This document shows, one piece after another, positions 2,750 through 42,492 of a stretch of 64,000 nucleotides of DNA (its first letter is position 1; the number at the start of each line of letters is the position of its first letter). The notes under the pieces were generated by a model that ran no database searches, was not told the DNA's origin, and saw only the letters and a list, made by a program, of their open reading frames with translations. The position numbers were made by a program, and so were the translations under genes. This stretch comes from Schmidtea polychroa (taxonomy: Eukaryota), in contig CM097885.1 of the NCBI GenBank assembly GCA_044892525.1, positions 183,272,001 to 183,336,000 on the forward strand, written 5' to 3'.

Positions 2750-3945
2750 ATGTCGGAACCCAACTGACCCCCGGACAAGAACGCAGAATTGAAACAACTT
2801 CACACCGAAATTGGGGGGGGGGGGCTAAAGAAACGCATAAATCAAAAGGAAGGTACGTGGTTCTTCCAGCCACAAATGAAAGAAGCCAATCGAAAGATCC
2901 TACGTTTAGAACATTGTAGGGATAGTCTGTTAGAGGAAAATCGGAGTCAGGGACTGACGATCAAGGCACACTCGGACACCCTTCACTGGATCTACTTAGA
3001 AGCCGAACTGTGGAAACAAGTTTCAACGTATCCGATCGTCGATCGTGACATCATTTTCCCCATCCACCATTTGCCCGATGGCCCAAACACTTCCAGCACA
3101 GCTATCTGCTCGAGCCACGGAGTCAAGCTCAGTCATTCACCGACCCCTGACGTTATCTTCATCGGTACCACTACGAATCAGGCCAAGACACCGAATCCTG
3201 TAATCTCTACGGCCGTTCCCGCGACCTCGTCGTCGGTCCCAAAAGGAATGTCTCACGCGAGCTAAAAGGACTAAGTGAAAACAAGACGAACTACCGGCGA
3301 TCAAGGCCAATCTATCCTCAGTTCAGTCGACCACCAAGCCTCGATCAGATCCAGCCCCAGTAATACCTAATCCACAATCGTACCATGACAATACCAACTC
3401 CTACCACTCCTTGGGAGATCGACACGCATTTAGAAATCGATATACGGACTCTATTGCAAGAGACCGAGGGTAGCGAGTTCTAATGGGCTGAAGTGTGTCA
3501 GTGAAGTAAGTAAATCCGCAACAATCCTTAGTCATAACTTGAACATTTATGCCAGTCTAGTTTATTCCGTATTATGATTATGTCGACGCGTTCGGTAGTT
3601 TTTTGTTGTTGTCAAACTATGAGTAGCGTGCCTATGTTCCTGTTGGACAGATGTAACTTTAGAATGCAGCATTCAATGTGTAGTTTTGATATCCTAAATT
3701 TGAAGCAATATAACTTAATGACTTATTTTGTTCTGTAGTGTGGATGAATAACGAATGATGATGTAGACCTGGAAAAGACGCAACGTAGGCTCAACCTCAT
3801 TGGACCAGGAGTAATAACCGCTTATCAGACGCAATACATGTGGGAGTAAGACCTTCTATCGGCATCCATGAACCTGTGTAGAGAACACCACGAGTAGTAG
3901 TTATAACATAGGGGCTCACCTGCTCATGGATTCCCGACCATCATG
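2750..3945 (+). mobile_element. Unclassified repeat family, copy 1: coiled-coil ORF remnant plus conserved downstream block
   Basis: EGTWF.PQMKEAN…LEHCRDSLLEENR motif; GTAAGACCTTCTATCGGCA block at 3846. Confidence 0.75.
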
Positions 3946-6634
3946 TACAGCACTGTAATGTACAATTTTATTCTTTTTTATTCCTAAACAAGGATACGGG
4001 ACGTCTGTCCATTTCGTTGGGCGTAAGTCGCGTTATAAAATTAAATAAGGAAACTATATAGCGATAATTCACTATGGTAAATTATCGATATACTAAAATT
4101 GAAAGATCGAAAAAAAATCGAATAAAAATTTTTTTTAATAGAAACTCATTCAATCATCTTCAATCTAATTATTATTCAGATTAACTGTGATAAATTTTCA
4201 ATACTATTCTTCCCAATCCCTATCTGAAGGAAATAGAAACTTATTCAGATTAACTGTGATAAATCACCAATCTATTCTTTCCCGACCCTTGCCAGAAATA
4301 ATTAGAAAATTGTCCTCGACATCTTCAAGGTTCATATAATTTTTTTTAATAAAAGTTGGAATCGTTTGTTAGTTTGTTTAACTAATATTATTTTAATATC
4401 ATATTTTTTGTCATTTGGTTGTCACAAAATTTTTACACACACGCACCCCGATTGTCCAGCCACATTTTTTAACGGTGACCCTATCGGGCTCTTCAAACTT
4501 CTTATCACACACCATCACACTTCATACAAATACCTAACTACATTCCTTATATAGTTCACTTGTCCTTCACTTGTCTTGCTCTACATAAATCTTTATATAT
4601 AGGTTTTCCAATAGGCTATTTCCAATCATATTTCTTAAGTTACCTCACACGCTGGTTACGCGAGGCTGCAGGTGGCGAGGTAATTTCCCATGAAAGTCTC
4701 ATATCCTGAAGTTTGAGATCTGAGTTCTTCAAGGCTTTTAACTAACATTTATTATTAATTCATGTATATATAATTATATATTTATTTATTCATATTTTTA
4801 TTTATTTGAGTAGCTCCCTATAGGGTTCTTACTACAAACGTATTTGTATTGAAATTTTTATTATACTATATAATATTATATTTTATTGAATTTCCGATTT
4901 AAATTTTCCAAACTATATTAGCTGCTTATGAATTAATCAATTATTGATTTTGTTGACTTTAACGATTTGGTTTTAATTATTTTATTAAGCTTACATTTAT
5001 TATTTATTTATTACTTTACTAAAATTTTCAGGGTACACAAAACAAAATAATTGAGGATACTAGATTTTATTTATTTATCACAATTTTTATTCTTTTATTG
5101 TTGTTTCCTTTGTATACAGCCACTATTTTTTCGAGCTGGAATTCCTTCCCGCCAAATGAAGACTCAGTAACAAACAAATCGGAACTAATAATTTTCAAAA
5201 ATAATCCCAGAAGATGAAGTAGAATTATAATCTATTCAAGATTCGACTAATCCGAACTTTATTGGTGAACTTTATATTAACAATTGATTAATTAATTTTG
5301 TATTTATTTTGTTGATGGACAATTGATTAATTTTATTTTGATGTTATATTTTTTTGTTTTAATATTAAATTTAGAAATACTACAATATATTATTAATAAC
5401 TTTACAATTAATTAATTCACGCCCTCTAGGGCCTAATTAAATTATAGAAAAATATTATTTCTATTATTGATATACATCACTTAAAAAAAACAAATTATGA
5501 TTGACTGTAATCATCACCTACAGGTCTTGTGTACAAAGTTCCTGTTTGTTTTTTAATTTTGTTCGACAAAAGGAATATTTATTATTGGAAGTAAAAATAA
5601 ACTGCTATCAAAATCAATAATAATAATAATAATAATAACAATAATAATGATAATAATTATAATAAACTCAGATAAAAATTTATATACATATACATAGACG
5701 GTTTATATAATGGCGGTTGGTGTGTACATCAATTATTGGTGACTCACCATTAATCAAAATAATGAATTTCATTTTTGAGATATTTTATTTTAGCCATTTT
5801 AAAAAATGGCTTTCAAATAAGTTTTAGCATTTTAATTAATTTTCAAGGATTGAATTTTGATTTTATATAGACATTCAAGTTTTTAAATATTACTTTTATT
5901 CAGCATTTATAATATAATTTATTTGTAATTACTTTTCGGCTTTTATTAGGATTTTAGACATAAAATTTATTTTGGAATTATTTCAATTTAATGATAGTTA
6001 GATAAATTTTGAATTATAATTAATTAAATTAAGTAATCGGCAAAAAGATTTAATTTTCCAAAACATTCCGGGAAAATTTGCCAAATATGAATAATGTAAT
6101 TTTTCAGATTTTTGTAAACTTTTTTTTCTCAGCTCAATATCAAGGGTGTTAGGCAAAAACTCAAAAAAATCAATAAATTATTATATTTCAACGAAAAAAA
6201 ACCACCAGGAAAAATGCAAATTAGAAAAGAAAGTTGTTTACGAAAAACAAATATTTTTGACAATTGAGGACTCTTGCCACTTAAAGTTTTAGTAAATAAA
6301 CCACGTTTCCTTCAGTCAAACAACCCATAAATCATATTTTCTGAATAGTTGAAAATTCAGTAATTGATATTTCAACATAATTTCTAGCATACATAAACAT
6401 ATCCAAACTAAGGCTCTTACATATCAACACATAAATATTATAAATACGCATAACTAATAAGCATACATATCAACATATATCACTCTTATATTTACTAAAA
6501 TTTCTACATTGCAAGTTAATTTAATTATCTGATAACTTTCCTATTAGAAAGACATTAAAAAATTATTTTATAAAGTAACATGATAACAGATTAAATTATT
6601 GCGAACTATTTTACTGCTAATAATATATATTTAC

Positions 6635-9994: not shown

Positions 9995-11430
9995 AAAAAA
10001 CAAGGATAATCTTTTGTATAATGGATATAGGCTACGCAGAGACAGGGTCATGGCTGATGGAAGTACATCGTGGAGATGTTCACGGAAAGATTGTTTTGGG
10101 TGTGTGAAAGTAAGTCAACAGGATATTGTTGTTGTTGTCTCTGAACACAATCATGGGCCAGATCCCGATCGAAATGAAGCGGTCAAGGTCGTAGCAGAAA
10201 TTCGTCGACGAGTCGTGACGACCGTGGAGAAACCTCGACAGATCATTCAACAAACTGCAGCTGCAGTTCCTTTGGAGGTAGCCAGCCATCTTCCAGAATA
10301 TACAGCTTCTCGACGTACGATTCAACGACAGCGAAAACGACACGCTGTGCCTTATGGTCCAGTAAATTCACTCGTTGACATAGTCATTCCAGATTCTCTG
10401 AAACAAACAACAAGGAACGAAGATTTCTTGCTTTGGGATTCCGGTGACGACGACGAGAAAAGAATTCTGATGTTTGGCACTTTGGGGAATCTTGAACTTC
10501 TTCAACAGCATCATCACTGGTTCATTGATGAGACATTCAAAGTAGCGCCGACCATCTTCTACCAAGTATTTACAATTCACGCACTGATCGGTGCTTCTGC
10601 GACACCTCTTATCTATGTCTTGCTGCCAGACAAATCTGAAAACGACTACGTGAGAGTCTTGCGCAAGCTGAAGGAATTGAAACCAACGCTGAATCCGATC
10701 AGCATTATGTCGGACTTTGAGAAGGCCAGCCAGAATGCATGCTCAGTCTTCTTCCCTGGAGCACAGTTGGTTGTATGTCTATTCCATCTTGGACAGAATC
10801 TGTGGCGCAAAGTTCAACAGCTTAATCTCGCAATTGCTTATCGTGATGACGAGTATCTCCGTATGCACGTATAAATGGCGCTGGCGCTTAGCTTCGTCCC
10901 TGTAGCTAATGTTCCTTCTGCATTTGAGGATTTGGTGGATGATTTTCCACCTTTGATGGTTCCATTGACAGAATACTGGGAGGACACGTACATTGGGAGA
11001 CAAAGAAGGGGCCGACGCGCAAATCCAAGATTTGCTTTGCATATGTGGAATATTCGAGACCGTGTAATCGATAACCTTCCTCGCACAAACAACTCAGTAG
11101 AAGCTTTCCAACAGACTGTCGATTGCCATCATCCCTCCGTCTACAAACTGGTTGAGTACTTCCGTCAAGAACAAGATCACTACGAATTGAAGATCGAAAG
11201 GTTTCGTGCAGGAATCAGACAACCAGAGGCATCCAAGTCCAACTACGTGCGCCTAAATCGACGCCTGCAGGCTTTGGTGCCAACGTATGGAACAGTTCCA
11301 GTTAGAGATTATTGAGAGGAATAGCATATAACTTGAAAATATAAAATGACAGTTTTTTTTCTTATTATTTTAGTTTAAGTTTTTTAATTTGTTCTGGCGA
11401 TTTTGTCCTGCGCGCTTTTGTCGGGTTACC
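9995..11430 (+). mobile_element. MULE (Mutator-like) transposon with FLYWCH-type finger; one premature stop; left end missing
   Basis: WRC…C…HNH, WFIDETFK, MSDFE, CLFH and RTNNSVE motifs; in-frame TAA at 10872-10874; GC-rich terminal-like sequence ending …TCGGGTTACC at 11430 with no matching left copy. Confidence 0.88.
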
Positions 11431-14112: not shown

Positions 14113-15369
14113 CATCCTGCGTACGTGCCTGACATCTGCTATAAGTTAATATTATACAAATATAAGAAAAAAGAACTGTTAGAATATTAAATTAATATTA
14201 TATAATAAGGAAAAAACACCTGTAATATATATTAAAAATTATATTCCGTGCATATAGGCCGGAAATAAATTATTTATTTATTAAATTTTAAAATGGTATA
14301 GATACCCCAGTAAAAATCAGTCCAATCGCCCAAAAATTTTGCGTTTTACAAATATCGGCGAATAACTTAAAACCAAGAGCAAACAGAAACGCTCTACATC
14401 TTTCAAAGAAATTGCAGTAAATAACACATAGCACGCATAATATAACAATTTAACAAAAAACATATAAATATAGGCATAGAATTATCTAACGAATTGAATT
14501 GGTCAACTAAACAAATACCTGAAGCATCTGTACATTTTTAATTGGTAAATTTTATTATTAAATAAACTTTTATAATTAGACTTATCTTCATTTATTTATA
14601 TAAGAACCAGTAAAGTTGAGCATCTCAAATATTGAGACCCCAACATCCTCATCATCCCGCCCAGTTCTTCATCTAAATGCCTGAATAATTGTGTACTCAC
14701 AATAGGTATATGAGAATGTGTCTACGAAGAGAACGTTTTTTTTAATAATCGAAATTCAATTTGACCGATCATGTATTTTTATTTATTTGGTTTATTTTTT
14801 ATGCTTATGTTAATTCATGTCATGTTAAACGATTATAATTAAATCTTAATTTTAAACCTAGTTTCTTTTCTTCTCAATTATAATAATTCAATGGTATTTC
14901 AAAACTCACAAGTAAACAATCTATTTAATCATTAACAACGTATTGTAATTTGTTTTTGCATGACGATGCCCTCCAGTTTGGGATACGCCTGTGAACTATT
15001 GGCCTGAGAGACTAATAGCCAGAAGACGGTTGACCAGCTCGGAACATCAATTTTTATGAAATTCTAGTATGATAATTTTGATAAAGCATTCATAATACGA
15101 AAAGAAACCTGTTATGACGAAAGCAATGATAATACTACCTGTATATACCAAATCAACCAACCCTGAAAATTTCGGGGATAGGGAAAAACTAAAGTAGGGG
15201 GACTGAAAGGGGTCAACTCATCGTCACTTCCCCGGTCGGGAACAGTATTGCTAATTTTCCGCCCAAAACTCGATGATTGAAAGAGTGTATGGGATTTTGA
15301 TTGATACATTTTTCCTCAGTAAAAGTTGTCATAAGAATATTTATAAATTAACTCATCTCTTTCTAGAAA

Positions 15370-15717
15370 ATGTCTGGACCAAGCATGCCCAAGTCCAATC
15401 TTAAACCGTGCTTCTCTTGCGCGGACAAAAACATCACGATCAAATAGGAATAGGCAGAGATAGGGTCTCTGAAAAAGCGGATAGATTTCTTAGAGGGTAC
15501 TTGGTTTACCCCCGCTCAAATGAAGGATGTCAATAAAAAACTTTTGAGGCTCGAAAACTGTAGGGACAGTATTCTAGAAGAAAATCGAAACCTGCGCATC
15601 ACCATCAAGGCGCAATCTGAGGCACTTCATCACATCTACACGGAGGTTGAACTCAAAAAGCGAATCCCCAAACGCCCAGTAGTCGACAAGGACTGGAGAA
15701 TAATTATCAAGATTTAG
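15370..15717 (+). mobile_element. Unclassified repeat family, copy 2 (CFSC + coiled-coil ORF, two stops)
   Basis: KPCFSCADKN…LEGTWFTPAQMK…LENCRDSILEENR. Confidence 0.75.
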
Positions 15718-17249
15718 AATATTTCAAATGGATAGTGAAATTTACTAAAAACTCGTCAACAAGCCGATCCTACTAGAAATATAGTCATAATAAGTGAGAA
15801 TCTTTATAGGCTAGTAGTTTGGGAGATAGACGATAGGATTATCTTAGACAATTTCAGAAAAATCATTGTTTAGAAATCATTTTAATTATAATTATTGTCT
15901 TTTATCATACATTATATTATTTTTGTTTATATGATATGAACCGGACCAGTTGGTGGAGATGATTTGGTACCGCTAACTTTCGGGTTGATGGCCTTTAGTT
16001 GTCTCTACCAATTGTCACGTTGAGGGTAGAAGAGTACAAATAGTGTATCGGTAGAGCGGAGGAATAGAGAATTTTCTTGAGTGGAAGTGACGGACTGTAG
16101 AATGCCTCAGATCGGTGACGAATCCATTATTTTTTTTGAATGACTTATCCAGTTCATTTTAACATCTGCTCGCTACGTCGTTCTTAAATATGTTGGGCTG
16201 AGTCGAAAGCATAGTTAGGAAATTAGGACAAGCAAGATGTTAAATAAAATAAAAATAAAACAAACAAATCTAAAAATAAACTAGAATCAAAATCCAAAGA
16301 AACAATAAATTAGGATATAAGAATTAAAACAAAAAAATAAAAATAAGAAAATATAATAACAAATAAAATGATGAAAAATTCAATAAATAATGAGGAAATT
16401 AAAGAAACAAATAAAAAATATAATAAAAATAAGGAAAATAAGGAAAAATAACCAAAAAACAGAGAAAGTAAATTAAATTAGAAAAACTAAGCGGTACGCA
16501 ATTCTGATTGGTCCGCACACATGAAAAATTAATATATAAGTAAGCACCAAAATCATTAAAATCACTGTTAACGCAAAAATTTTTATAGGTAAGGAAACTT
16601 CGAAATATCACTCACTGTTAACGCAAAAATTTTTATAGGTAAATCCAGGAACCAGCAGCGACTTACAGACAACCGAAATTAGCCAAAGAACAACTAGTAA
16701 GAGGAATCAACATTCAAGGAACAATCAGTATTTGAAATCAAGCAGACTGTTTGCAAAGACGTAACGATTCATTTCGACTCAGCCCTCATACCGATAAGCA
16801 ATAGTAAGGAGATTTTTTTATTTTTGAAATTAAAAGTAATCATGGATATTTGTTAAATAATTAAAATCTTCGTTTAAGGCGAATTTCTCTTCATTTGATC
16901 CTTTTCTTTTCTTTTAATAATTTTAACGAGGTTAATAATGTAAATGTTTAAATGTGATTGATAACAATAAATGAGTTATTTAGAAATTTTTATGATTTGT
17001 TTCATGATCTAATATTTTATGATTTTACATTTTATGAGGAACGTGGAGTTGAGACGTTTCATGTCATGGTGTGAGGGGCCTTCGGGTGCTCAGCCGGTGG
17101 ACATGAAACCTTTCAATCATGCAGTTGATTCGGGCCGTAATGTGGGGGCTTCCTCACGGGTCCGTCACTGAAGATCACCTAAATTTAGTTAGGGTAGTAG
17201 AACACAAGATGTATAGGAAATTTTAAATCATAAGAAAAGTAATGTTCAC

Positions 17250-18000
17250 GGGTCACAGTGATTGAGGGAGCTATCATCTTTATGCCTACCATGACTCTAC
17301 AAACTATAAGCATTATTCTTCGAAAAGTTCATGCGATCACCATCTGTAAACCTGAATCTCTAAATCTTGCATTAATAGCTCGAGTAACACTCATCTCCAA
17401 CGAAATTCTCCAACATCTTAAAGTTGAGCTCTCATTTTATTTTTCGGAGAATAAGCCTGATTCGAAATTTTCACCCTTACATCTTGACATTCAGACGATA
17501 GAATATAATGATAACATTTACGAAAAGATTAAATAACAAGACTATATGTATAACAATACTTTATTTAAATATATTTATTAACTAATTCTGAACTACCTGC
17601 CTAAACATTATCTATATGACTCATTCCGAATATTTGTCGCTGCAATGAAATTAATAGACATCTTCTAGACGGTTTAGAAAGATCCTTCATAGCTTAATAT
17701 ATCCAACTCTAGAGAAATTGCAAGTTATAACGACAAATTCCAACTTTTCAGATTAGATGCGAATTAACAGAAGGTGATATGACATCTGAAAATTTTTTCC
17801 AACTCAACATGTTATGGCAAGTAGAACTTCATCGAATGGAACACGTGCATGCACAGACTGTAACTGCTAGTGGCGATATCCATATGTGAGTATGCGTGAG
17901 AAATAACATAATTGATGAGCAACAATTAACAGTAGGGAATTTCACCATATGACACACCCGGCAGAATTTTCATCTTTGTGAATAGTAGCGGGTGAGCGTA
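17250..18000 (+). mobile_element. Probable LINE 3' remnant (similar pieces at about 13140-13320 and 40480-40900)
   Basis: Weak resemblance to the LINE RT C-terminal E..Q..FTR…Y..RL pattern; heavily decayed. Confidence 0.3.
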
Positions 18001-18608
18001 TTAGATAACAACTGCCATGAGGCACGTCACCCAAGCCGGTAATTCTCAGATATTTTTTGATAAAAATGTTGTGTCGCTAATCGAGATGATTCGAGTAATC
18101 AATAGACGACTACCGTAGGCGAATTAAAGTCCTTAAAGTCCAAATTTTAGAAATTTTAGATTAAGTATTATAATTAATAATTAAACTTAAATAGACCTAT
18201 CCATATAATTCCTTAGACCCTTAGGTACGAAAATCATCAAGCGGGAAGGGGACAGTTTTGGGGAAATAAACAGCTCTATATATTTTATTTTAATTCTTTT
18301 GATCTAAATTGTGATTTAGCAGTTTTTAGGGAAATTTAGAAGTTAATAAATTCACTCAATTACGGAATTTTATATTTTATTTGCATTCGTCAAGACAATA
18401 GTATAGGTTATTAATTAATATTTTGTTTTGTAAATAATACACAAAGTAGTAACGGTTAGTCGTCTGGGGTGGATTCCTTACCCGCCTAACCTGTTCTTCT
18501 CTTCTTGTCGAATATCCGAGGCAGTGAATGGGTAGTTGCGTCCAATTTATGACATTACAAATACCATATATTCTGGTTATCATAATCTCTTCTTTATAGC
18601 TATCCGAC

Positions 18609-18857
18609 ATGCTACCGAATACCAAACCTATACTACGCCCTTGTTTCTCCTGTTCCGACAAAAATTCCATCATCAAGGATTTGCAGGCCCAGATCGGTCG
18701 ATACAAAAGAAAAATCGACGAACTGGAAGGCACATGGTTCAGCCCAGTGCAAATGAAGGAGGTACAGAAGAAGCTGTACCGCAGTGAACACTGTCGCGAC
18801 GCTCTAATCTCTGAGAGCCGTTCTCAACGGAATCTAATAAAAGAGCAATTGGAATAA
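18609..18857 (+). mobile_element. Unclassified repeat family, copy 3 (open 82-aa ORF)
   Basis: RPCFSCSDKN…LEGTWFSPVQMK…SEHCRD. Confidence 0.75.
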
Positions 18858-19989: not shown

Positions 19990-20303
19990 TATGACCTCAC
20001 TTGGACCAGGGATGCATCAGAAAATGAAATGATTCGCATAAAAAGGATGTAAGACCTTCCATCGGCATTCAGGAACCCGAACCGAGAATATCTTGAGCAG
20101 TAGTCTTAAGATAGGGACTCACCTACTCACAAATTCCGACCCGCGTGTGCATTACCAACTAGAACGACTTCATGGATACACGTGAGGGAGATGAACATGC
20201 TAAAATCATCAATAGGGCGTTTAGGAAGGAGTTTCTTGTCGAGCCAATTAATCAGTTGCCCCTAACCACCATTTCTCTCTGACACACCCCTAAGATCCCA
20301 ACA
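19990..20303. mobile_element. Terminal block of the same repeat family, ending CCCAACA
   Basis: GTAAGACCTTCCATCGGCA at 20049; LTR-type end at 20303. Confidence 0.65.
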
Positions 20304-24250: not shown

Positions 24251-24261
24251 AAAAGTCACTA

Positions 24262-28732: not shown

Positions 28733-30821
28733 ATGCAGAGCCATCCAATATCCCAATACTAAGGAAGACATAGCATTATACGTGCTACGACCTTATTAAA
28801 GGAAAAACTTATTTATAAAAACCTGGAGAAGCAGGTAATGGAGCAAAGCAGAAAAGGACAAAGGCACTGGTTTTACGGACATTGTTCAGGCATACCCAAT
28901 AATTTCAAATTTGACGAGGCCCCAAAGCGTCAAATGATTATTTCAAGAATCCCGGGCAAGCATAACGCTAGTATTAGGCTTACCGAGGTCATGCCTGAGT
29001 TTGGCAGACATAGTCTGACCAACCACCTGTGGATACACGCCATTAACAAACCATTTACGGTTTATGTTCCTGGCGCCACAAACCCTATTTTGCTGCAAAA
29101 GCATACAACCCTGGAAATTGAAAACAGAGATGGAAGGGAAAAGAACATCTCACTGTTATGTGAAGGAATAGATACCATCGTAGCAATGGAAATTCTGGAA
29201 TCTCACAGAGAAACACAAACGAGATGGGTTAATGACCCAAATTGGACATATAATGTCAATGATAACGACATCAAAAGTTTAAGTCTTTCGTAAGACAGCG
29301 CTTGGACCCTAGACAAGAGGATAACCTCACCATTTTCGTAGCAGCTCACTACGCTACACTACGACAATTCCTGAAACTGGCAATTGTGGCCATCTCAATC
29401 TCACATTTCAATGGCGATCTGATACTCAACACTAGAGTTACCCCCAGAGCACAGGTCAAACATTACCAATCGCATGCGCATGGTATGACCGAGAGAGAAA
29501 TAACCGGACAGTTCAACGGAGAAGACTGTGCCGAAAGAATTAGGAAAATCTGCGATGGGAAAATCATCGTGGGACTGTTAGTAAAGGACCTATTAGAAAT
29601 AATCAGATTCCCAATGCAGCGCGCACTCGGAATCCGTGAGTTAGGCGCAGCTAAATGCCTCGAAAATAGGGACTTAAAGAAATGCAACGGGTATTACCGT
29701 TTGGCATATTTGGCAAAAGCAGTCACCGGTTAAGAGGCACATCACTTCTCGGACCTTCAAACGGAGAATGATGTAACAACCATTAAGGAGATATACGACA
29801 ATTTACGAGATATCTGGGTTGATGACATTTCCCCAGACACCCGGAAAGAGGTGGTGTCTTCACAAATAAAGCAGATGGAACCCGGAACCTCAAGCATGCA
29901 GAAACCCTTAGCTATGGAGAGCTATATAAAAGAAGATATCCCAGGTCTAAGTTGTTGAAAATAGTGGAAGAAGATTCCTTGTCGCCGCCAGCCATCTCTA
30001 TTGCTGACGAAGACGAATATGCCACTTGCGAGAGCGCGGACGATAACTGCCTCCAAGTCACCCTTACCAATGACGGTAGAGTGGTGAATTCGGCTAAAAT
30101 GGAAACAGAAAAATCACCGCCAGCAGCAAAGCTAGTGGAACGGGTCACCAAGATCTTAAAGGCATTGACCCCGTTGAGTGAACCCAAACAAGGAGCAGAA
30201 GGAGGAACATTGCCCCAAGCTGTAGCACCACTACTTAGGCTACAAGATTTAAAGTTCAAAAAGAAAACAACGGAGGAACCCACCCAGAAAGAGGACAAGG
30301 AGAAAAATGTCCCTACCTCTACGAAAAGGAAAAGGGAGATTCCTAAGAGTATAAAAAAGAAAATGCCTAGGATATCCATCCAGGATGAGGATGACGATCT
30401 CTTAGAAACCCACTATCAGCCACCAGATCCTGCATTGACCAAGATATTGGCAACAAAGAGTGAACCCACGATTGCAGGAGAGCCTATTATCGTGAAGGAA
30501 GGCGAGTTCGTAGGAAGGGGCAACTCAATCAAAATACGGGAAGATCTCGACAGAGAAGATCCTAGTTGGTGGCAGAGACCCGACAGCGAATGGAAACCGC
30601 GTGTCAAGGAATACGACGGAGGCCCAATCCATGAAGTAGCCGTATCCAATTTCAGCGATTACGGAGTATTGGAGGCTAGTGAGGGCACATATATCATCTC
30701 CTCAATCGTGTACAAAGAAGTAAGTACACGGGAGACTTTGGTGGTCAGCTACAGACCAGACATAGTAGAACAAAGGATCCGTAACGAAATTGCCAAGGTC
30801 ATGAAACGGAGAAAATATTAG
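28733..30821 (+). pseudogene. Accessory gene containing a DEDDh (REXO4/ISG20-like) exonuclease-fold domain; two frameshifts and internal stops
   Basis: Acceptor TTTATTTCAG 2 nt before ATG; segments 28733-29293, 29302-29947 and 29952-30821; middle segment follows the REXO4 pattern (SISHFNGDLILNTRVTP…HYQSHAHGMT…KIIVG…KDL…LAYLAKAVTG…ENDV…IY). Confidence 0.65.
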
Positions 30822-31141
30822 CAATTCGGCTATGTATTCAATGGACCTAGCAATTTGCTATACGTCCTCAATCCCAGCACCTTCGACAATTCAATCCAAT
30901 CCAGTTATTCAAATTGACAAACATTTACTTTATGAACAATATTTGACTATTCTGATTTTGGTGTTGATTTTGTTTACATATTTTAACATTTCCTTGATGA
31001 ACAATCTTTGATTATTTTGATTTTGATTTTGCTTGCATTATATATATTTTAATCAGTTGTTTTATTTTTATTTTTATATTTATGTATCAGCTGCAATTGT
31101 CTTGTCTTTACCGCTTTAATTTTCGGGACGAAAATCTTGTT

Positions 31142-31272
31142 AGGGGGAAGACATGTTGGGGTTCAGTAGGAACCTGAATCAAAAGTTTTGTAATTAAATA
31201 ATAAGTAATTACTAAAATTAGGATTAAAATATAAATAGTATTTAAAAATTACTAAAATTGGAATTAAAATAT
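31142..31272 (+). mobile_element. PPT and start of 3' LTR of the accessory-gene-bearing element
   Basis: AGGGGGAAGACA directly before TGTTGGGGTTCAGTAGG (31154), matching the LTR start at 22269; right end not resolved. Confidence 0.8.
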
Positions 31273-32149
31273 AAATAGTAATAAATAATTACAAAAAATA
31301 AATTCGTAACAAAAATAGTAATTATTTAAAAATATATAATAAAAATAGTAATTAAATAATTACTATTAATAGATTTAAAATAAATAAATTTATATAAATA
31401 CCAGTAAAATTATATTGATAGGAGAGAAAAAAAGATCGTAGATCAGAAAAATCAAAAGGAGAAGTTAAAATTAGATTGGGAAAAATTTCTAGTTGTTATC
31501 TCATTGGACGAATTTCTGTTTTAGTGAACATTCCGTATTCATTTTATTGATCGGAAGAAAAAGAAATTTACAAATCTCTTGGAAATTTAATATCGCGACA
31601 CTGTAAATTAGCTCCAATATTCATTGGAGTAATTGAGAAGAGAACAAAAGAAGAAAACAATTAGGAATCGTTTCGACAACCCATCTGTGGTTTCGTCTAT
31701 CTACTTGAAGGAATTTAAACAAAGAAAATTAAATTAGTTAGTATTTATTGTTGTTCATATCTAAATAAATATAAATATATAAATTTATTCTGTCACATAA
31801 AACGATTTTAATAAGGGAAACAGTAACGTCAGCACGTATCTTTTTGTGTTGTCTCGTTACGAATATTATTTAAAAAAGAGTTAACCGATTTCTGGGTTGA
31901 CTCTATCGCGTTAAAATTAGGTAAACTCCCTTATCTCTTTTCCGCTCACCTATATCGGGCTGTTGGCGCATTTAGGGCCAGCCTTGATTCTTAGTAATAC
32001 TCTTTAGGGCGGTTTGTATAACCGTTTTCTGTTCTTTAGAAAGCAGCGTGATTAATTGTGTAATATAAACAATTGTGTAACTAACTATTTATTGTTAATA
32101 AATATTTAAATCATATTCGTTATTTTATTTACCTACACGCATTATAAAT

Positions 32150-33150
32150 TATTTGGAGTCAGTTAAACGTTTTTTTTTGTGTTAGTTCGAATACATACCC
32201 ATCGAACCTGACAGTATAACTGTTTACCATATGGTGTAAGTTGTATGACGTCTGGTTTTCTGATAAAACTGATTTGCTGTGTCGCGAAATGATGGAAGTC
32301 TAAAAAGTGTGTCACAAGCATGAAAAGTTTGGAAAGCACTGATTTAGAGGTATCAAAAATACTTCCAGAATAAACAACATGAATCAATTCGTTATTGAAA
32401 TCGCCGCAGAGGCAGGAGTCCTGAAGTAATTAGTAGTAAGGAATTCACTTTCAATCTGTTAGCAGGGTAATCAAACTATCAAGAGCAAATGCAAAATCCT
32501 CGTCTTATTGAGATAAATCTCTGTAGTATAGGGCATAGTCATCTTTTAGTAGAAATCATTGCAAACTCATCTTTCACAAATTTCGTTTTATCCACGCACT
32601 AAACAGCACCGGATCGATAGTAATAAGAGACCCATAACACATAATATCTCATTAGGAGTTTCGCTGTAAATTAGATTGCTTGATAGAAAAATTATATAGG
32701 CGCGTCAAAAATCTCAATTAGTTCAGTTGCATACGATTATACAGTTTAATCGTCGTTCAATTAAATGCAATTTGGCAGACCAACTCTTATAACACGCATC
32801 GCGATAGATCAGCGAACACCGTCGTCGTTCATCAGAGCTAGCAAGCGAGATATAAACAGGAAACGTCATCATCATAAATATCAATCTTGATTCACAACCA
32901 AGGTAGAGGAAGTGCGGTCGATTGTAGATACCGAGTAAATATAGACAAACCTGGAAGCATAACACCATTTACCCGCAATATAAACAATATTCGATTAGAG
33001 TGTATAATATTGATATCAACAATGAACTTGCTCCGGTGATCATCGCCGTACCAAATGAATATATAAATAAACAAAATATGGCACGTCAAGCTGAATATGA
33101 CGACCATGAATGCGAATTCAATTATTCTGTAGTACGTAAACATTAGTTTT
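32150..33150 (-). mobile_element. Degenerate non-LTR (LINE) reverse transcriptase
   Basis: Fragments resembling P.LF..W(I)N and DDYALY…LD.L patterns on the minus strand. Confidence 0.5.
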
Positions 33151-33812
33151 AAAGTTGTAATGCTATCTAAACATTAGTTGAATTATTCTGCAATTTATAA
33201 ATCTTTATTTTTTTGTCGTAATAATGCACAAATAGTAATTAAGTTTTTCGATAGTGCATAAACATTTAATTTTAAAGTAGTAAAAATGCAGAAATGTTAA
33301 GTACTAGTGGCACAACTTGAATGCAGACGTAGTGAGAAATGAACTCTTTTCGTATAATTAGAAATATCATTAACCGTACACTGCATATTGTATCACTGGT
33401 GATACACAATTATTTTATTAGAATAAAAACTGTCTCGCTCTTGTTCTCGGTAAATGTTCTCTCATATTACATTGTATTGGCTATATTTGCAATATAATAC
33501 AAAAAAACCGTAATGTAATTCTCAATAGTTTTGTATTACCAAATCAATTTTTAAAACGTCTTACAGTTTAAGTAAACATTTTTTCCTATCAAATATAAAA
33601 AGTCATGCAGTGTAGGGTTAAAAATAAAATAAAAGATTGCTGTCATCCCCCGATCAAATCTGCCCGAGTGTCAGCTTTTCTTTTATATTTGATGAATAAA
33701 TGAATATAGTATAACTTCGTTCTGATAAACATCTACACATAGTATTTTTTTGTCGACTGACTGAATATTCATATTATGGTGTAATCATTTTGTGAACTTT
33801 CCTTATGTAGCA

Positions 33813-35096
33813 ATGTCAGAAACCGAACTTACCCAAATCTGGTCCGAAATCGTGCTTCTTATGTGCGGATAAAAATGCGTCGATGGAGCAAATGAAATTA
33901 GAAATCGGGAGCTTGAAGAAACGTATCGACTTCATGAAGGGGCGTGCTTCGCCCGGCCTAAATGAAAGAGGCCAACAGGAAAATCTTAAGGCTAGAACAC
34001 TGAAGGGATAGCCTACTAGAGGAGAGCCGAAACCAGCGGCTTACCATTAAAGTTCAATCGAAAACCTTACATCATATATATTCTGAGTTCGAGCAACGTA
34101 AATGTATCACGGAGTGTCCAATCTCTGACTGGTATAACATCTTCCCCTTTCATCACTTACCAGGCGATTCCAAATCCCCCAAAAAGACTTCATGCCTCAA
34201 TCACGGGAGTGAATCTCTTCCTTCACCTACTCCAGACACTGTGTACATAGGAACTTATACGGTTTCTAACACGACACCCGTACCCTTCGTTGCTCCACCA
34301 GCTCCTACTGTCGCACCATCTATTTCAAATCTAACCATTCGCCCGAAATTCAAAAGACTTACATGCGCAGAGCGATCAAATCGCAAGAGAGATGAATTAG
34401 CCACCGTCGAAGCTGCGTTGTTTTCCATACTCCTTCCGACTCAGATTGGAGTAGTCTCGACTCAAACGATAACAGGACCACCTCCGTTCAGAATTGTACC
34501 AACAACGGATACCCCGTGGGTAGCAGACTTGCAACTGGAAATCGACAACCTACAACGGGAAGCCAAAGGCGGTGGTGTCTAGACAGCGGCCAAGGAAGTA
34601 ACTCTGTGATTAGTAATTCGTATCTGCATCGTCTCAATGAGTTAGTATGTCCATCGATCGATAAAAAATTCTCTGCTATATTTGATTTTCTGACGAATTA
34701 ATGTGCATTTGATTCAGTATATAACGTAGTATGTCCTAACATTTAATAAAGATTGATGATGTTTCGTTGACTTATCTCTGTAATGTAAAGTATTGGTCAA
34801 GTGGTTGTGTAGGTTTGCAAGGGAAAGAAATTGGGAATAAGCTCAATTGGACCAGAGGCGTCGAATGAATTGCATAGTATTTAGATGGTGGGGATGTAAG
34901 ACCTTCTATCAGCATTTCAGGACCCTAAATAAGAATATCATGAGGGGTAGTTCTAACAAAGGAGCTCACCCGCTTTTTTTCAGCCATTGTGTGCAGCACC
35001 AATATGGTCATCGCCATGGGCACACAGTTGGTTTAAAGACAATAATCATTGATGGCGTTTAAGAAGGAATCGGCTCGAGAATATGTAAGTACCCCT
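33813..35096 (+). mobile_element. Unclassified repeat family, copy 4 (interrupted by hATm; resumes 38262-38302, ending CCCAACA)
   Basis: Frameshifted CFLCADKN…LKKRID…EH*RDSLLEESR; conserved block at 34896. Confidence 0.75.
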
Positions 35097-38000
35097 TAGG
35101 GTGCCAATGAAATACATGGCAAAAATTTAAGTGTAATATTTTTCAGGTCTTACCCCCTAATTTTGTTCCTATTGATATGGTAATCAACTGGTATTTTTTT
35201 CTTCAACATTCAATTATATTTAGAGGTTTCTCACTGGCATCATAGTCCAACATATTGTACGTTATGGGTTTATTCCTAATAAAATACAACATTGAGTTGA
35301 ATGAGTTTACTTACTTATTAGTGTGAGTCATTGCAATTATATATTCTTTGGAGATTGTTGTTGTCTGCATTTTTATTGGATTTTAAATTTTGTTCTTTAT
35401 TGCGTGTGTGACTTGTGACTTTCTTATTTAATGCAAAGCTAACTCTGGGTAAGTGTATTGTTTCATAACACTTAATTTATGAATATTTAATTGGTGCAAT
35501 AGACTGATTTGTTGCAAATTGGCCAGTGGGTCTGTCAGTGTCTAGTTGTCTAGTCCTGCTACTTATTTTTTGTTGTTGTTGCAATGCAAGTATAACGTTG
35601 CTTATTATAATAGATCTGAGCTACTGACTACTGACTGACTTGTGAGCTTGTTTTATATTTTTCTGTGCATATACTTGCAGATATCCTGGTTCAATGGCAG
35701 CTGTGTGTATAAGTAAAGGCAAAGATCGAGGCATCTGGTTGATTGGTGGAACATTGAGTGAACTAACAGGCAGCAAACTACCATCAAATCGACAAGTACT
35801 TGCAAGATTTTTCCACTTTCATTTGAATGAAAAGCTGACTATTCAGGACAGTGCTGTATCAACAACAAGAGAACTATTACAATTTTGGATGAAAGCCAGA
35901 ATACCAACCCGACAGGACTATAATATTGTTGCCAAGTTGAAGGATTTACATGCAAAATGGCAAGCGCTTAAGAAAAATACGGCAAGGATGTCCAAAGTGC
36001 AAAAGAGTAAAGAGGATGCATTTTCGGAAAGTTTGGATGATTTATTCGATGTTGCACATGCAAATGCAATGAAACGCATCAAAATTGAAGAGGACAAGAA
36101 ATTCTTGGAAGCACAGCGAGAAAAGGGCAGGCGGGGATGCATGGGTGCAGTAGACACAAAGCTTACGAAGCAGGAGGAAAGACGCCGGCAGCGAGAACTT
36201 TTAGAGGAGCAAAGAAAGGTCAGAGAAGAGCAGAGACAGTGCGATGCTTCAGTCGTAAGAAGTTTGGGTGAAAGCAGTGAAAGTGAAGATGACAGCAGTA
36301 GTCTAACAGTGTCGGATCCCAGTATGTCTATGCCAGCGCCAAAACGTCACCGTCCAATGAACATACTTACTCCAGAGCTGGCATCTGCACTTGATCGGAC
36401 GAAAGTAAGTGACAGAAATGCCACGTACATTTTGGCTGCCGCTGCCAAGTCACTTGGCCACAATCCCAGTGAGCTAACTTTAAACAAAGAGTCAACCAGA
36501 CTAGCTCGAAGGCAACATCGTGCAGACATTGCTGCAGAAGTGCGAAACAGTTTTTCACCCGATACGCCATTGACAGTTCACTGGGATGGCAAGCTGCTTC
36601 CCGAGTTGACAGGAAAAGAGACTGTGGATAGACTTGCAATAATTGTGTCTGGGGATGGCGTAATGAAACTGTTGGCTGTTCCCAAGTTATCAAGTGGAAC
36701 TGGTGAAGCTCAGGCTACAGCAGTGCATGAAGTGTTACTGGACTGGAATTTAACCGATCGAATTATTGGCATGTCATTTGACACCACAGCAAGCAACTCC
36801 GGAAATAAAGCTGGCGCATGCGTTTTGTTGGAAAACAAGTTGAAGAAACAGCTGTTGAGTTTGGCATGCAGGCACCACATTCATGAACTTATTGTCGCTA
36901 AAGTCTTTGAAACAGTGATTGAAAAGGCATCAAGTGGTCCACAGATCAAATTGTTCCAGAGATTCTCAGCAGCATGGAGAACAATCAACAGACAAGCGTT
37001 TGAAAGTGGTATCGGTGATGATCAACTTGCCAGTGAACTAAATCCAATCAAAGAAGAAATGCTTGTCTTTCTGAAGCAGCAGCTTCTGACATTCCAGCCA
37101 AGAGACGACTATAAGGAGTTACTTCAGTTGAGCATTTTGTTTCTTGGTGATGCGTCTGATAATGTCACTGTGCATGCACCAGGAGCCTATCACAGAGCCA
37201 AGTGGATGGCCAAACTTATATACTGTCTCAAAATTTACTTGTACCGTTCACAGTTTCATCTTACACCTCGAGAACTTTCAGGACTTCGACAAATGAATGT
37301 TTTCGTCATCACCATCTACCTGAAGGTGTGGTTTACTTGTCCATCGGCACCTTCAGCTCCGCAACATGACTTGGAATTGTTGCAGCAACTAGTCCAGTAC
37401 AAAACAAGAAATGAAGCAGTTGCCAATGCAGCACTCATTATCTTTCTTCGCCATCTGTGGTACCTCGGTGAAACCCTGATCGGTTTGGCTTTCTTTGATG
37501 ACGAAGTGCCGGTCGAGAGTAAAGAGCTAATGGTTGCCGCACTATCGCGTGAAGGTGAAGAAGAGCCATGCAAACGTATACAACTGGATGAGAAGGACAT
37601 TTCTACAAAGAAACTCTCAGATTTCGTCACAACCAATACCAGGCAGTTCTTTGTCGCACTCGAAATTCCACAGGACTTCCTCCGACAGCATCCTTTAGGA
37701 TGGAAATCTAACTCTGACTACATTCGGGGTCTGAGTCGTGTCAAGGCTCTTAAAGTTGTCAATGATGCAGCTGAACGTGGCGTATCACTGATACAATCAT
37801 TTAATGTTGTCATTACAAACCAGGAGGAACAGAAACAGTTTTTACTTCAGGTGGTCGAGAAGCATCGCCACGACTACCCGGACCCCAAGAAGTCTACGCT
37901 TGCAGGCTGCTCCAGTGACAATTAAACTTGCACTTTTACTTAAGTAGATTCAGCTAAGCACAGTGTAATGTGTGTAATAGCACTAAACTTCACTTTGCAG

Positions 38001-38297: not shown

Positions 38298-38302
<5 letters not shown>

Positions 38303-38384: not shown

Positions 38385-38387
<3 letters not shown>

Positions 38388-40207
38388 GGTGGCCCATGCA
38401 GTATAGCAAAAAAATAAAAGTTTTAAACTTCACCTTCTCACCCTTCCAACTTGTTCCAATGTTGAAAAGAAAATTTTCTGTGAAATATTTTCTGAAATTT
38501 CTCGACATTTAGAGGTGGCCCAACAATCTAGAAGTTTGAAGTACAAATATTTTAAAGTGGTTTTTATACGTTTTTGCTACTTGTACTGTGTTTGACGAAA
38601 TTATGAGCAGCAAAATTATTTCATTTTTATTACAACATTAACTGTAGTGAAAACAGAGACATATTTGACAATAAACACACCTAACAACCGAAGCAGTTTA
38701 CTAGTTTCGTTTATCACTGGGCCTATAGTCACTAGCCAGATTTCAGCTGTGATGCTGCAATTGTTCTAGCTTTACACCTGGCTCGGTGGATTGAGTTCCT
38801 GCTGATGTTGAGGGAATCAACATTGTGACTAAGGCTGGATGCTGTTTCACACAACACATAAACAGCATTTCTGGAGGATGTCTGTGTTCTGTCCAGAGCT
38901 GCCATTAGCCCAGGAGTCAATACATCAGTCTTAGCTTTCTTTGGCACTGGCTTTGTGATACAGTCAGCAGGATCTGTTGATGAGGATGCAACAGGTTTAT
39001 ATTCATCATCACACAAGACAATCTGCTCTTGGTCATGGTCACTGTCTTCACCAGATGATGATTCGAGAGTTGTCAAACAAGCACTGATATTCATTTCATC
39101 TACTGACCTTTGCCGCCGCCTTGCTTCAGCTTGTTTGCGTTCACCAGCTGCTCTAGCTTTACGTTCAGTAACTTTATCCCGGACACCAATGGATCCTGGA
39201 CGCCCTTTTTCTCTCTGGCGTAACAGGAATGCCCTGTCTTCTGGGTTGCTAATGATAGTTAGTGCATCCTGATGGGCTATGTCGAACAGATCTTCAAGAT
39301 GAGAAACAAATTCATGCTCCTGTTTTTTGTGAGCTTCACCAGACCTCGACTTGTGTTTTTGGAGACCCTTCCATTCATAAAAGACTGATTCAAGCTTCTG
39401 AATGCAGTGCTGTTCTGCTCTTGTTGGAATGCTTGCTTTTTTCCAGAACTCCATTATCACGTTGATTGTCAGTTTACTGGCTTCGCAAAGAGTCATTTTT
39501 TCTACTTTATGTAGGTGTAGAAAGTACCCAAATGTCTGATAATACGATGGCAGCTTTGCACTAAGAATTTCAGGAACATATGATTTAATCAAGTAAACAT
39601 TATCATTAGATCTTGTTTCCATTCTGTTAAATCTGAAACACAATAACATGGAGAGTGGAGACGATTAGGTTAAGCAAAACACTAGGCATAATTGAATGAA
39701 CAACTGAAAAATTTTAAATTTGCTGTATAGTACAAGAGTACATTTAACATTGTAAAATGCATTCAACAACGATGTGTTTTTGCATGTAATTCAGCAAAGT
39801 AAAATACTGACTATTAATACATGAAGAGAACAAAGATTGCATAATTACATCTCGACTGGTGAGTAATAGCTGACTTTTTGTCTCAAAAATGAAAAACAAA
39901 TATAAACATAAACAGAAGAGAATTAGCAAAGAATGTCTAATAAATTCAATAAAATACCAATAAATAAGTAACACTTAAATAGGTTAATCATCCATACTCT
40001 CTCAGTCACTGCTATATAACAAACCAATAACTCGCCCTGAATTACCGGCAAAAGAAACACCATGTCAAAACTTCATCACCAGTGGGCCACCTTTAAATAT
40101 TGTCAAATTGCAGAAATATTTTGCACTAATTATTTTTATAGCAATTGGAACAACTTGGAAGGGTGAGAGTTGTTAGTTTTTAACTTTCAATTTTTTGGGC
40201 CACCCTA
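38385..40207 (-). mobile_element. Internally deleted hATm-like element of a second family
   Basis: TIR TAGGGTGGCCCA, subterminal inverted repeats, TSD ATATATAT; ORF 38732-39649 is homologous to the N-terminal ~280 aa of the neighbouring transposase and lacks the DDE core. Confidence 0.9.
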
Positions 40208-41290
40208 ATATATATATGTATCCAATCAATAATATAAAAATAACACAAAAATTAGTAGAAAAATCACCAGAACACAAAATAAGAATATACGATACTACGA
40301 AAGCCATAATCTTTCAGAAGAAAGCTCGGACTCTATAAATGAACATACACAAATAGTAATAACGGAAATACTTAACCCTCAAAAGAAACAATACAGTTCG
40401 ATTTATAAAAGAATTACTTTATAGAAGAATCTCTACGAAAATCTCAATTCAATCCAACTGAAAAACTACAATTTATAAAGAAAAATTTCTGAATTTCAAC
40501 GGCACCCAAATTCGAATATAACATTAAGATTTACTACTTCCAAAGACGAGAAATCAGGTTGATCATCACTGCTATCGATAGAACTTCCAAATTTAACTGA
40601 TACTATCACAGTAATAAACCAGCGTACTTAGATGAATGCCGAACAAATATACGTTACATTAGTATTAGTATCGCCTTTGAGGTGAAGACCCAGCTACGGC
40701 CTTCTGAATTATTCAATAAATTGATGAAGCGAGGGACGTAATCGATAATACTACACAAATTGGACGTCAATATCTTGTATACACTGATTTAATTATTAAA
40801 AACCAATCGAACCACCCATCAGAGGTGAAAGATTATCGTGGCAATTGTTTGAGGTTAATAAATTCTGCTCATAAATAATAAAATACGATTAGAATAGATT
40901 CGTAATGGATGAGTTAAATTAAAATTTTCGTTTTCTTTTATGATTGATAGTATTATAAAAGTTAAATGTGGTTATCAGCAATGAGGATTTTATAATTCAT
41001 CTAATTTAGAATTAATGGATTAAATATAATTTTTCTATTATTATTGATAATGTTCTAAAAATCATCCCCTGGTCGAGTCATCTTGTATGCGCTGTCTAAT
41101 CCATCTTCTTTGCGTTTACCACCTAAATGGTTACCGTCTGCTTGAGAAGTCGATCTTACCTGCATAAATGTGAGTGAAGTGAAATCCCTGCAGCTGACAT
41201 CCGGCGAGGTTTTCTTGAATTGAACAATTGAATGTTGATCTGTATTGATATTATGATATTATCTTAACCTATCACTCACAATTGTAGATT

Positions 41291-42492
41291 ATGAACAATC
41301 ATACCAATAATGCGGCACCATTACTCCCTTGTTTTTCATGGGCCAATAAAAATGTCCACATTCGGAAATTCCAAGAGGCAAATCAAATATTGAAAGAAAA
41401 GATCAGACGCCTGGAAGGAACTTGGTTCACCCCCGTCCATATGGAAGAAGCGAATAAAAGGTTGCTACGCGCGTAACACTGTAGAGACAGCCTACTAGAC
41501 GAAAATCGGGTACAGAGAATCTTAATAAAGGAACAGCAGCGAACTGAAAATCCGAATCAAAGGCCTGCCTGCGTCCGAACAATGCAATATCTTCCCCGCT
41601 CACCATCTAACAGAGCATCCAAGTTCATCAAGTCGCCTGTCTTGTACGAGTTGTGTCAATACACGTTCCTCTCCTAGTGTAACCGACGTTATCTTCACGA
41701 GCACTAGAGTGGTTTCAAAGATTGCCTTTAAGTCCGCGGAAAAATCCATTGTCCCCGCGTTTCCGATCAAATCAAAACGGAAGCAATTGTGTCGAGAAGA
41801 GAGGACAAAGAGACGAAAATTGAAAAAGGCTGAAGCTGAATCTCGTTCAGCAGAGTTAAGCGCCCAAGTGGCCGGCAAACCGAATACTTTCCGAGTAATC
41901 CCGCCTGCAAGTACTCCGTCGGACGAACAAATAACGGAATAGTTCGAATTAGACCCCTTCTGGCAGAAGCGGAAGATCCAAACTTTTGGGAAGGATATGT
42001 TTCACAAACGATCTGATAATGAAAACTGCGTGATCAATTATGTCCTGTGGAAAATACATTAATGTAGTTAATGTTTTCTTTTGCTCATTCGACTTGTATA
42101 ACTGGGTATGCTTCTATATTGGAATGATGATGAATAGATAAATAATTTGATTGCGTGGGATAGATTTAACTGTTGAGGACCAAGGAATGAAAAGGATAAA
42201 ATGACGTAAGACCTTCTATCGGCAGTCAAGGATCCGTTAAGAATCGCTATAGGAGAGTAGTCCTAAGTAGGGGCTCACTTGTCTTATGGGATTCGCAGAA
42301 TTGACACATTACCAACATGGGTGTCCTGTTGTAAAGAAACAATCATGCCGTAGTGTTCCGATAAGTCATACTGAACGTAAACAGTTTGTGAATGACCCTG
42401 TTTGCATGAGCCTGATCTCCTTAGATCGAAATAGTTGTCTAGCATGTCTGAGAATCATATGTTCCTTTTGACCTACGGAGGACTACCCAACA
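41291..42492 (+). mobile_element. Unclassified repeat family, copy 5, ending CCCAACA
   Basis: LPCFSWANKN…LEGTWFTPVHMEEAN…HCRDSLLDENR; conserved block at 42206. Confidence 0.75.

Follow-up and report, generated by a model that had tools for sequence, protein, structure and literature searches.

Genes that lie in or overlap a long terminal repeat (LTR) are known from retroviruses, as in mouse mammary tumour virus (MMTV) sag and human immunodeficiency virus (HIV) nef, open reading frames (ORFs) that are expressed by splicing and are situated in the U3 region of the 3' LTR. In foamy virus, polyadenylation in the 5' LTR is suppressed, via U1, by a splice donor in R that precedes the poly(A) signal (PMC3694450). 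Burro/GYPSM1 elements, in turn, have been described as gypsy-like planarian LTR retrotransposons of ~30 kb (Jurka 2007 and Grohme 2018, as summarised in PMC6431247), one of which supports stem-cell survival in regeneration (Lee et al. 2026, as cited in PMC13465017). Here we analyse a 64,000-nucleotide stretch of the Schmidtea polychroa genome (the window; assembly GCA_044892525.1, contig CM097885.1, positions 183,272,001 to 183,336,000 of the forward strand), which harbours five decayed copies of an ORF. Our reading, to which we give a probability of about 0.75, is that these copies are remnants of Burro-type LTRs, that the ORF is a self-contained and cis-spliced LTR gene, and that its product is probably a nuclear activator acting in trans.

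The initial annotation of the window had reported five related copies on the plus strand, each with a splice acceptor just before the ATG. The ATGs are indeed located at 2750, 15370, 18609, 33813 and 41291 (copies 1 to 5), with a YAG ending 2, 3, 9, 2 and 3 nt upstream behind sequence with a pyrimidine fraction of 0.60-0.80; an equally near YAG precedes 285 of the 1068 ATGs in the window, giving a probability of about 0.001 for five out of five. Searching with a profile of natural copies recovered these five loci and no others in the window (E 1e-7 to 1e-66 for each piece); just left of it, the same profile located a sixth copy, also on the plus strand (flank L140:8654). No window copy is intact, the frames from the ATG running for only 5, 25, 82, 19 and 61 amino acids owing to stops, frameshifts or truncation, and the full protein cannot be made by any of the five. 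The copies are related, as had been claimed, but the CxxC motif by which the family had been defined is absent from copy 1, reads CFSW in copy 5 and is missing from remote homologues.

Copy 3 was utilized as the query against the 781-Mb genome of the window, and 150 of 5863 candidates were scored, all of which were significant. An open frame of 241-249 amino acids was found in 14 of 29 other loci inspected, and many matches formed same-strand pairs about 20-26 kb apart. Such pairs are direct repeats of 3.9-4.25 kb with 99.1-99.98% identity and TG..CA ends (five elements), and the ORF lies 2.6-2.9 kb into both LTRs of a pair, encoding 247-254 amino acids where the LTR is intact. A target-site duplication (TSD) of 4 bp accompanies elements B, I, P and Q, and elements J and H, being inserted in TAT repeats, are uninformative on this point. 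The same 18-mer primer-binding site, presumably a match to tRNA-Pro, is located 7-9 nt behind 5' LTRs only (1058 genome matches vs 0 for the control), and the 3' LTR is preceded by a conserved sequence and not by a plain purine run.

Between the LTRs, Pfam matches were obtained to Retrotrans_gag, zf-CCHC, Monjiviricetes_fusion, RVP, RVT_1, RNase H, rve, Ank and RING-TRAF-MATH. The domain order (gag, protease, reverse transcriptase, RNase H, integrase) is that of Ty3/gypsy; gag has three CCHC knuckles, a RING ORF lies upstream of it, and a fusion-type env (PF24664, E 1e-71) is placed between gag and protease. With sizes of 29.9 kb (element B), 30.8 kb (I) and 23.7 kb (A), this anatomy matches the available description of Burro/GYPSM1, which likewise includes a length of ~30 kb, three CCHC gag knuckles, env between gag and protease, the same enzyme order, ankyrin, TRAF-MATH and RING ORFs and very many copies (PMC6431247); judged by its anatomy, the parent is therefore a Burro-type giant Ty3/gypsy LTR retrotransposon, a kind already known. 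The elements here differ in that TRAF-MATH is downstream of pol and in that no BIR or Bcl-2 domain was matched by Pfam at E 0.001 in the ten ORFs scanned, where the sensitivity of the models may be limiting. An ORF, intron or promoter anatomy inside the LTR is not mentioned in the texts available on the family. The supposition of the initial annotation that this is a mobile-element gene is thus borne out by its location inside the LTRs of an element with gag, env and pol, which is also the full-length parent, albeit with none found among six candidate pairs for the old-lineage copies. Nor is the ORF a gag or ORF1 fragment, given that six versions matched no Pfam family and that gag is a separate internal ORF.

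The ORF is, on the pattern of substitutions, under strong purifying selection, and the dN/dS near 1 that would mark an unselected sequence can be set aside. Among 13 ORFs of LTR clade I, the proportions of nonsynonymous (pN) and synonymous (pS) differences in the N-terminal block were 0.088 and 0.883, and omega was about 0.03-0.05 in the 12 of 78 pairs that could be corrected; values of about 0.1 were obtained for the basic and C-terminal blocks and of 0.2-0.5 for the linkers. For five ORFs of clade II, which behave alike, pN and pS were 0.057 and 0.72, and even the window copies differ by 0.36, 0.28 and 0.66 at codon positions 1, 2 and 3 (454 codon pairs). Between the clades, in the one element pair compared (L031-L033 vs L117-L118), the LTR ORF retains 39% amino acid identity vs 89-93% for gag, env and pol, and four-fold sites differ by 0.81 (36 sites) vs 0.41-0.53, which suggests that LTRs seem to evolve or be exchanged as separate modules.

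Divergence so much faster than that of gag-pol could also befit a factor that counteracts silencing (piRNA or heterochromatin) or manipulates the host (apoptosis) and is not a direct activator, the more so as several ORFs of Burro elements are directed at the host (RING, TRAF-MATH, ankyrin) and as the elements are targeted by PIWI in planarians (PMC8532177). We nonetheless regard this as improbable, as selection within clades is purifying, conserved blocks bear no sign of positive selection, and Pfam, PDB and profile searches brought up no named family of host proteins.

The LTRs of clade I, clade II and old-lineage relatives have in common a CCAAT box, a TATA box and, about 55 nt on, a splice donor, a pattern with 896 genome matches vs 15 for the control. 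After this donor come a GT..AG micro-intron of 42-53 nt, an exon 2 of 134-197 nt and a second donor, with a large intron of ~2 kb between donor 2 and the ORF acceptor. The leader exons of 15 LTRs contain a single ATG in 2787 nt vs 36.6 expected, and the large intron contains 685 in 33534 nt; under dinucleotide shuffling with the micro-intron included, five ATGs were counted vs 17.4 expected, the lowest of 200 shuffles giving 10 (14 LTRs, locus L127 omitted). The acceptor AG is invariant in all 27 copies with 9-nt spacing, vs 44-89% conservation at the next nine positions (beyond these copies, one has 8-nt spacing and one lacks the ATG), which argues that the acceptor noted in the initial annotation is real. 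Its proposed use in a long subgenomic RNA or in spliced-leader (SL) trans-splicing fared less well, the former being less likely than splicing within the LTR and the latter disfavoured; we consider it likely that the ORF is cis-spliced from the LTR leader exons to the acceptor before its ATG.

The same arrangement recurs elsewhere in the element. In one full element, a YAG is at most 10 nt away at six of seven separate ORF starts (background 384/1369, or 0.28; P 0.003), a count that leaves out three Met codons inside the frameshifted polyprotein, and an acceptor before the ATG would thus be the general design of the element. Six further separate ORFs (RING, TRAF-MATH and four of unknown type), at L117:6263-6742, L159:5268-8362 and L118:71-1463, nearly all start behind an AG, and the gag frame lacks an early Met, hinting at a splice or a non-AUG start. 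These starts, together with 3' accessory ORFs lying closely spaced at 55-220 nt from one another, would also be expected if a flatworm spliced leader were added in trans and the ORFs were resolved in an operon-like manner, and SL trans-splicing does occur in free-living flatworms (PMC12582326, as far as the text was accessible). For the LTR ORF this is very unlikely: conserved leader exons free of ATGs, with donors, are already provided by its LTR, so that a spliced leader is not needed; the distances from AG to ATG (0, 2, 3, 5, 8, 9 and 10 nt) keep no frame, though flatworm leaders, in the same source, end in ATG; and alternative cis-acceptors would give the same pattern. SL trans-splicing is likelier at the 3' accessory ORFs than at the LTR ORF.

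Further support for splicing within the LTR may come from the micro-intron, the 3' end of which repeats the end of exon 1 over ~25 nt. A duplicate of at least 12 nt is present in 26 of 30 distinct promoters, and in 23 of these 26 it begins 27-34 nt after the TATA box at an initiator-like A, the predicted transcription start. The two parts are 98.9% identical within an LTR vs 54% between LTRs. The four promoters without it are L127, which has no micro-intron, and three decayed loci. We read the duplicate as a reverse-transcription fingerprint of real cis-splicing, in which strong-stop DNA copied from a spliced 5' end would anneal to the unspliced 3' R in the register of exon 2, such that exon 1 would overwrite the end of the micro-intron at each cycle. 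If so, transcription would start at that A, cis-splicing would take place, and genomic RNA would start at the same promoter; the duplication would then allow the transcription start and the splicing of a retroelement to be read from its DNA. The absence of the micro-intron from L127 would equally be produced by a deletion between the repeats. In a search for processed LTRs, a pattern joining exon 2 to the ORF start had five genome matches vs two for the control, and the one match inspected, L142, was rejected as a processed junction as it is an LTR start.

Two poly(A) signals are conserved. The second AATAAA is at a shared position behind the ORF in clade I. The first follows donor 2 at a distance of ~150 nt in 12 of 15 clade I LTRs vs 1.9 expected, in all four clade II LTRs located (five tried), and in four of four LTRs of the short type described below, where it is the last AATAAA. 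The first AATAAA probably ends R, which would place the ORF in a U5 of ~3.2 kb and not in R. An initial idea of a U3 gene with a TATA box near the downstream AATAAA was dropped, as that TATA box is not conserved. Retroviral LTR ORFs are usually found in U3, and the invariant GTAAG of the downstream RNA element could be a donor for expression from the 3' LTR only, via a long subgenomic splice as for sag and nef; we consider such an arrangement most unlikely, as the conserved promoter is near the 5' end of the LTR, no conserved TATA box accompanies the downstream AATAAA, and the exon-1 duplicate at the upstream start implies that the reverse-transcribed RNA begins there. Unlike sag and nef, the ORF here follows the LTR promoter and would be expressed from every intact LTR, even a solo one.

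Two structured RNA elements were also recognised. Element 1, in the large intron 65-125 nt behind the first AATAAA, has compensatory changes in 10 of 36 pairs and folds better in the sense strand (z -3.1 vs -1.6 for antisense); element 2, near the LTR end beside the invariant GTAAG, has compensatory changes in 15 of 22 pairs, and its core has 2477 exact genome matches. The covariation of both was reached in none of 500 shuffles. A search of the LTR, both RNA elements included, found no match in Rfam to E 5, hence no known ribozyme, and a Penelope-like origin was discarded. Both elements recur in a young and abundant family of non-autonomous ~15-kb elements with short LTRs of 1.55-1.66 kb (five sampled; L167-L176, e.g. 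G000:C1:5728807-5744374), all five of which lack the LTR ORF and pol, having gag or no ORF, and keep the LTR ends, RNA element 2 and the primer site; RNA element 1 is kept in three of four short LTRs scanned. As the short-LTR pairs are >99.7% identical, these elements appear to have moved recently without the ORF, and the retention of cis-signals by such movers points to a product supplied in trans; the LTR protein therefore likely acts in trans. The position that element 1 occupies in short-LTR types P, R and T is taken in type Q by another structured RNA, and a search for an autonomous partner of this alternative element returned only its own family among the 40 of 673 candidates that were scored.

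These landmarks are recognisable in the window, and very probably the five copies are decayed pieces of ~4-kb Burro-type LTRs. Copy 3 has the LTR start, promoter, donors and RNA element 1, copies 1, 4 and 5 have RNA element 2, copy 2 matches locus L162, and in near relatives of copies 1 and 2 an LTR start and the promoter lie upstream. The non-coding element ~0.9-1.45 kb behind four of the five ATGs (3846, 20049, 34896 and 42206) and the LTR promoter upstream of copy 3 had been missed in the initial annotation. Copy 3 belongs to clade I and the others to older lineages; it has no exact TSD, and it is probably chimeric, as the LTR 3' part behind it resembles an old lineage in sequence. The features are as follows.

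2746..3385, plus strand: copy 1 acceptor (AG 2746-2747) and decayed LTR ORF of an old lineage; stop at codon 6 and later stops
3836..3969, plus strand: copy 1 structured RNA (element 2), conserved in the 3' part of the LTR; invariant GTAAG at 3846
14825..15108, plus strand: LTR remnant upstream of copy 2; 81% identity to L162, whose LTR start, promoter and donor are farther upstream
15365..15717, plus strand: copy 2 acceptor (AG 15365-15366) and the beginning of the ORF, interrupted by stops at 15445 and 15451 and homologous up to about 15700
16191..18857, plus strand: copy 3, 5' 2.67 kb of a clade I LTR, from the TGTTGGG start into the ORF; 83% identity to L043/L047 over the first 2 kb
16507..16540, plus strand: copy 3 CCAAT box (ATTGG at 16507) and TATA box (16533)
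16564..16588, plus strand: copy 3 predicted exon 1; start placed 31 nt after the TATA start
16589..16638, plus strand: copy 3 GT..AG micro-intron of 50 nt; the 27 nt up to the donor (exon 1 and 2 nt more) recur as its 3' end
16639..16803, plus strand: copy 3 leader exon 2 as predicted, free of ATGs and followed by donor 2 at 16804
16966..16971, plus strand: copy 3 first conserved AATAAA, predicted end of R
17031..17183, plus strand: copy 3 structured RNA element 1 in the predicted large intron; two stem-loops, UUCG loop, covariation
18598..18857, plus strand: copy 3 acceptor (AG 18598-18599) and ORF codons 1-82, followed by unrelated sequence
20040..20303, plus strand: LTR 3' part behind copy 3, with RNA element 2 and LTR-type end (CAACA)
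32214..33621, plus strand: sequence upstream of copy 4, three pieces sharing 89-93% with related loci L162, L160 and L165
33809..34582, plus strand: copy 4 acceptor (AG 33809-33810) and near full-length, frameshifted ORF of an old lineage
34745..35033, plus strand: copy 4 AATAAA behind the ORF (34745) and RNA element 2 (34884-35033)
41286..41942, plus strand: copy 5 acceptor (AG 41286-41287), followed by a decayed ORF that has a stop at 41474 and changes frame near 41530
42196..42352, plus strand: copy 5 RNA element 2

That the encoded protein could not be assigned to a known family held in every search conducted: none of six ORF versions matched a Pfam family, the best PDB sequence match had an E of 0.34 (with none for P0012), Foldseek returned nothing at E 0.001, and all matches in a protein atlas were under 0.9. 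A set of 5.8 billion proteins gave no match to one sequence and, with a wider profile, four matches, all to previously found homologues. A profile search of 1.84 billion representatives gave 17 matches, 14 of which are fused to unrelated domains in the manner of gene-prediction chimeras; these remote homologues keep the coiled coil, the P..H motif and, where present, the Arg-rich helix. In public gene models P0002-P0018 the exon is fused to unrelated host genes, and the acceptor that precedes the ATG has probably given rise to such fusions as artefacts of annotation.

An AlphaFold model based on 28 sequences (mean predicted local distance difference test score, pLDDT, 64.5; predicted template modelling score, pTM, 0.35) predicts helices at residues 18-39, 46-99, 175-191 (basic) and 236-242 (short, C-terminal and of low pLDDT), the remainder being disordered. 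The basic segment has a net charge of +8/+9 in all eight proteins compared, and the last 24 residues one of -4 to -7 in seven of eight. A coiled coil, basic helix and acidic tail would suit a nuclear transcriptional activator of the element, an assignment which we make tentatively and which is modelled on foamy virus Tas, likewise an element-encoded transactivator (PMC3856414). An acidic-hydrophobic C-terminal helix together with a nuclear signal, as sought in a Tas-like acidic transactivator, is predicted in seven of eight proteins. Foamy virus LTRs also resemble those described here in having a donor upstream of the poly(A) signal (PMC3694450, likewise in part), but the gene described here does not extend beyond the LTR, is probably situated in U5 and has a second poly(A) signal of its own, and the likeness to Tas is one of functional model only.

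The same protein might instead act as do Rev, Rex, Rem and Rej, which, in the sections available, are nuclear, multimerise and bind structured RNA (PMC3856414). As a product of fully spliced RNA, it would bind RNA element 1 or 2 via its arginine-rich helix, allowing unspliced genomic RNA to read through poly(A) sites or leave the nucleus. The resemblance extends to a predicted spliced-RNA product, a basic helix at 175-191, probable oligomerisation and a structured RNA in a retained intron, where element 1 has its better sense-strand fold; genomic RNA must retain that intron and pass two poly(A) signals, the ORF-less short-LTR family keeps the RNA elements, and the Arg-rich helix is strong in remote homologues, one of which matches Pfam REV (E 0.0013; 19.1 bits, under the cut-off of 22). 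Rev-like proteins, however, need an export signal according to the same text, and a classical leucine-rich signal of the class 1/2 pattern was found at a shared position of the C-terminal half in none of eight proteins. The sub-threshold REV match, confined to one remote homologue, may be due to composition, the RNA elements might serve simply in packaging or splicing, and the host element here is Ty3/gypsy; on balance, a Rev-like role, although the leading alternative, appears rather unlikely.

Under the reading of a cis-spliced gene for an activator, transcription would start ~380-530 nt into the LTR, and a 25-nt exon and an exon of about 140-200 nt would be spliced to the acceptor, skipping the first poly(A) signal and the structured RNA, with the LTR mRNA ending at the second AATAAA. 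Genomic RNA would use the same promoter and end at the first AATAAA of the 3' LTR; ends so placed would put the gene in the ~3.2-kb U5 and make an intact solo LTR a complete cassette. The protein would oligomerise via its coiled coil, enter the nucleus via the basic helix and recruit the transcription machinery via the acidic tail.

Several observations weigh against this reading. The spliced junction was seen in no transcript data; contigs of four of 12 runs (three guessed to be RNA and one of unknown kind, one of the three without any contig placed) were checked on one LTR stretch, and these contained no donor-acceptor joint and gave coverage that follows the most conserved blocks and is therefore uninformative; the stretch includes neither exon 1 nor the micro-intron. 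A full-length gag-pol parent for the old lineages (copies 1, 2, 4 and 5) was not found among six candidate pairs checked, these being segmental or tandem duplications or unrelated LTRs, and what links these copies to LTRs is the ORF, RNA element 2 and the LTR start and promoter of their relatives. The window in which the first AATAAA was counted was set after the alignment had been viewed, related LTRs are not independent samples, and the ~3.6-kb strong-stop DNA implied would be unusually long. Saturation of pS confined correction to the aforementioned clade I pairs. As for the protein, the acidic tail is absent from one old-lineage member, no known DNA-binding fold was matched in Pfam or Foldseek, and the function is a prediction from a model of low pTM with no Pfam, PDB or Foldseek counterpart.

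The copies were also said to be antisense to MOCS1, which is correct, MOCS1 being on the minus strand with exons near 46226, 44175, 43485, 42700, 7053 and 6806 and more in the left flank L140. Copies 2-5 are within one MOCS1 intron and copy 1 within a later intron. All six copies, including that of the left flank, are antisense (2 x 0.5^6 = 0.03), as would be expected if sense insertions with splice and poly(A) signals are lost.

Other mobile sequences were observed in and around the locus. A different Ty3/gypsy element occupies a MOCS1 intron at 22269-31275 (gag 23002-24250, pol 24232-26802, more ORFs to 30821), with repeated ends (22438-22756 = 27817-28133; 22269-22390 = 31154-31275). DNA-transposon ORFs with long open frames, by eye MULE-like, hAT-like or of other DDE types, are at 9996-11315, 35646-37925, 38732-39664 and 61534-62792. 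A tandem array of 30/61/122-nt units (56593-57514) has parts weakly resembling the LTR around RNA element 1, in antisense, and an open frame of 304 amino acids at 59776-60690 has, by eye, the look of a small heat-shock (alpha-crystallin-type) protein. At loci L044-L046, Polinton-like ORFs (long polymerase-like and integrase-like frames, by eye) lie beside nested LTR copies.

The LTR-resident gene was not described in the texts searched, and Grohme 2018 and Lee 2026 may describe it; it is apparently an undescribed gene in a known element family. At somewhat less than even odds, this Ty3/gypsy element may be organised like a complex retrovirus: its LTR would be an intron-containing gene in a 3-kb U5, with a trans regulator that reads matching structured RNA or promoter signals and is borrowed by pol-less parasites, and one leader would be joined to at least seven acceptors. 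The packaged genome would have a spliced 5' end, the exon 1 copy would renew itself, with a lost micro-intron restored at each strand transfer, and hundreds to thousands of LTRs could supply the regulator. An LTR exon with an acceptor explains why gene predictors fuse it to unrelated host genes. Burro elements are abundant in planarian genomes, and the LTR gene is a candidate regulator of a 30-kb, many-ORF element; if this is true, their solo LTRs would be protein-coding cassettes and not inert scars.

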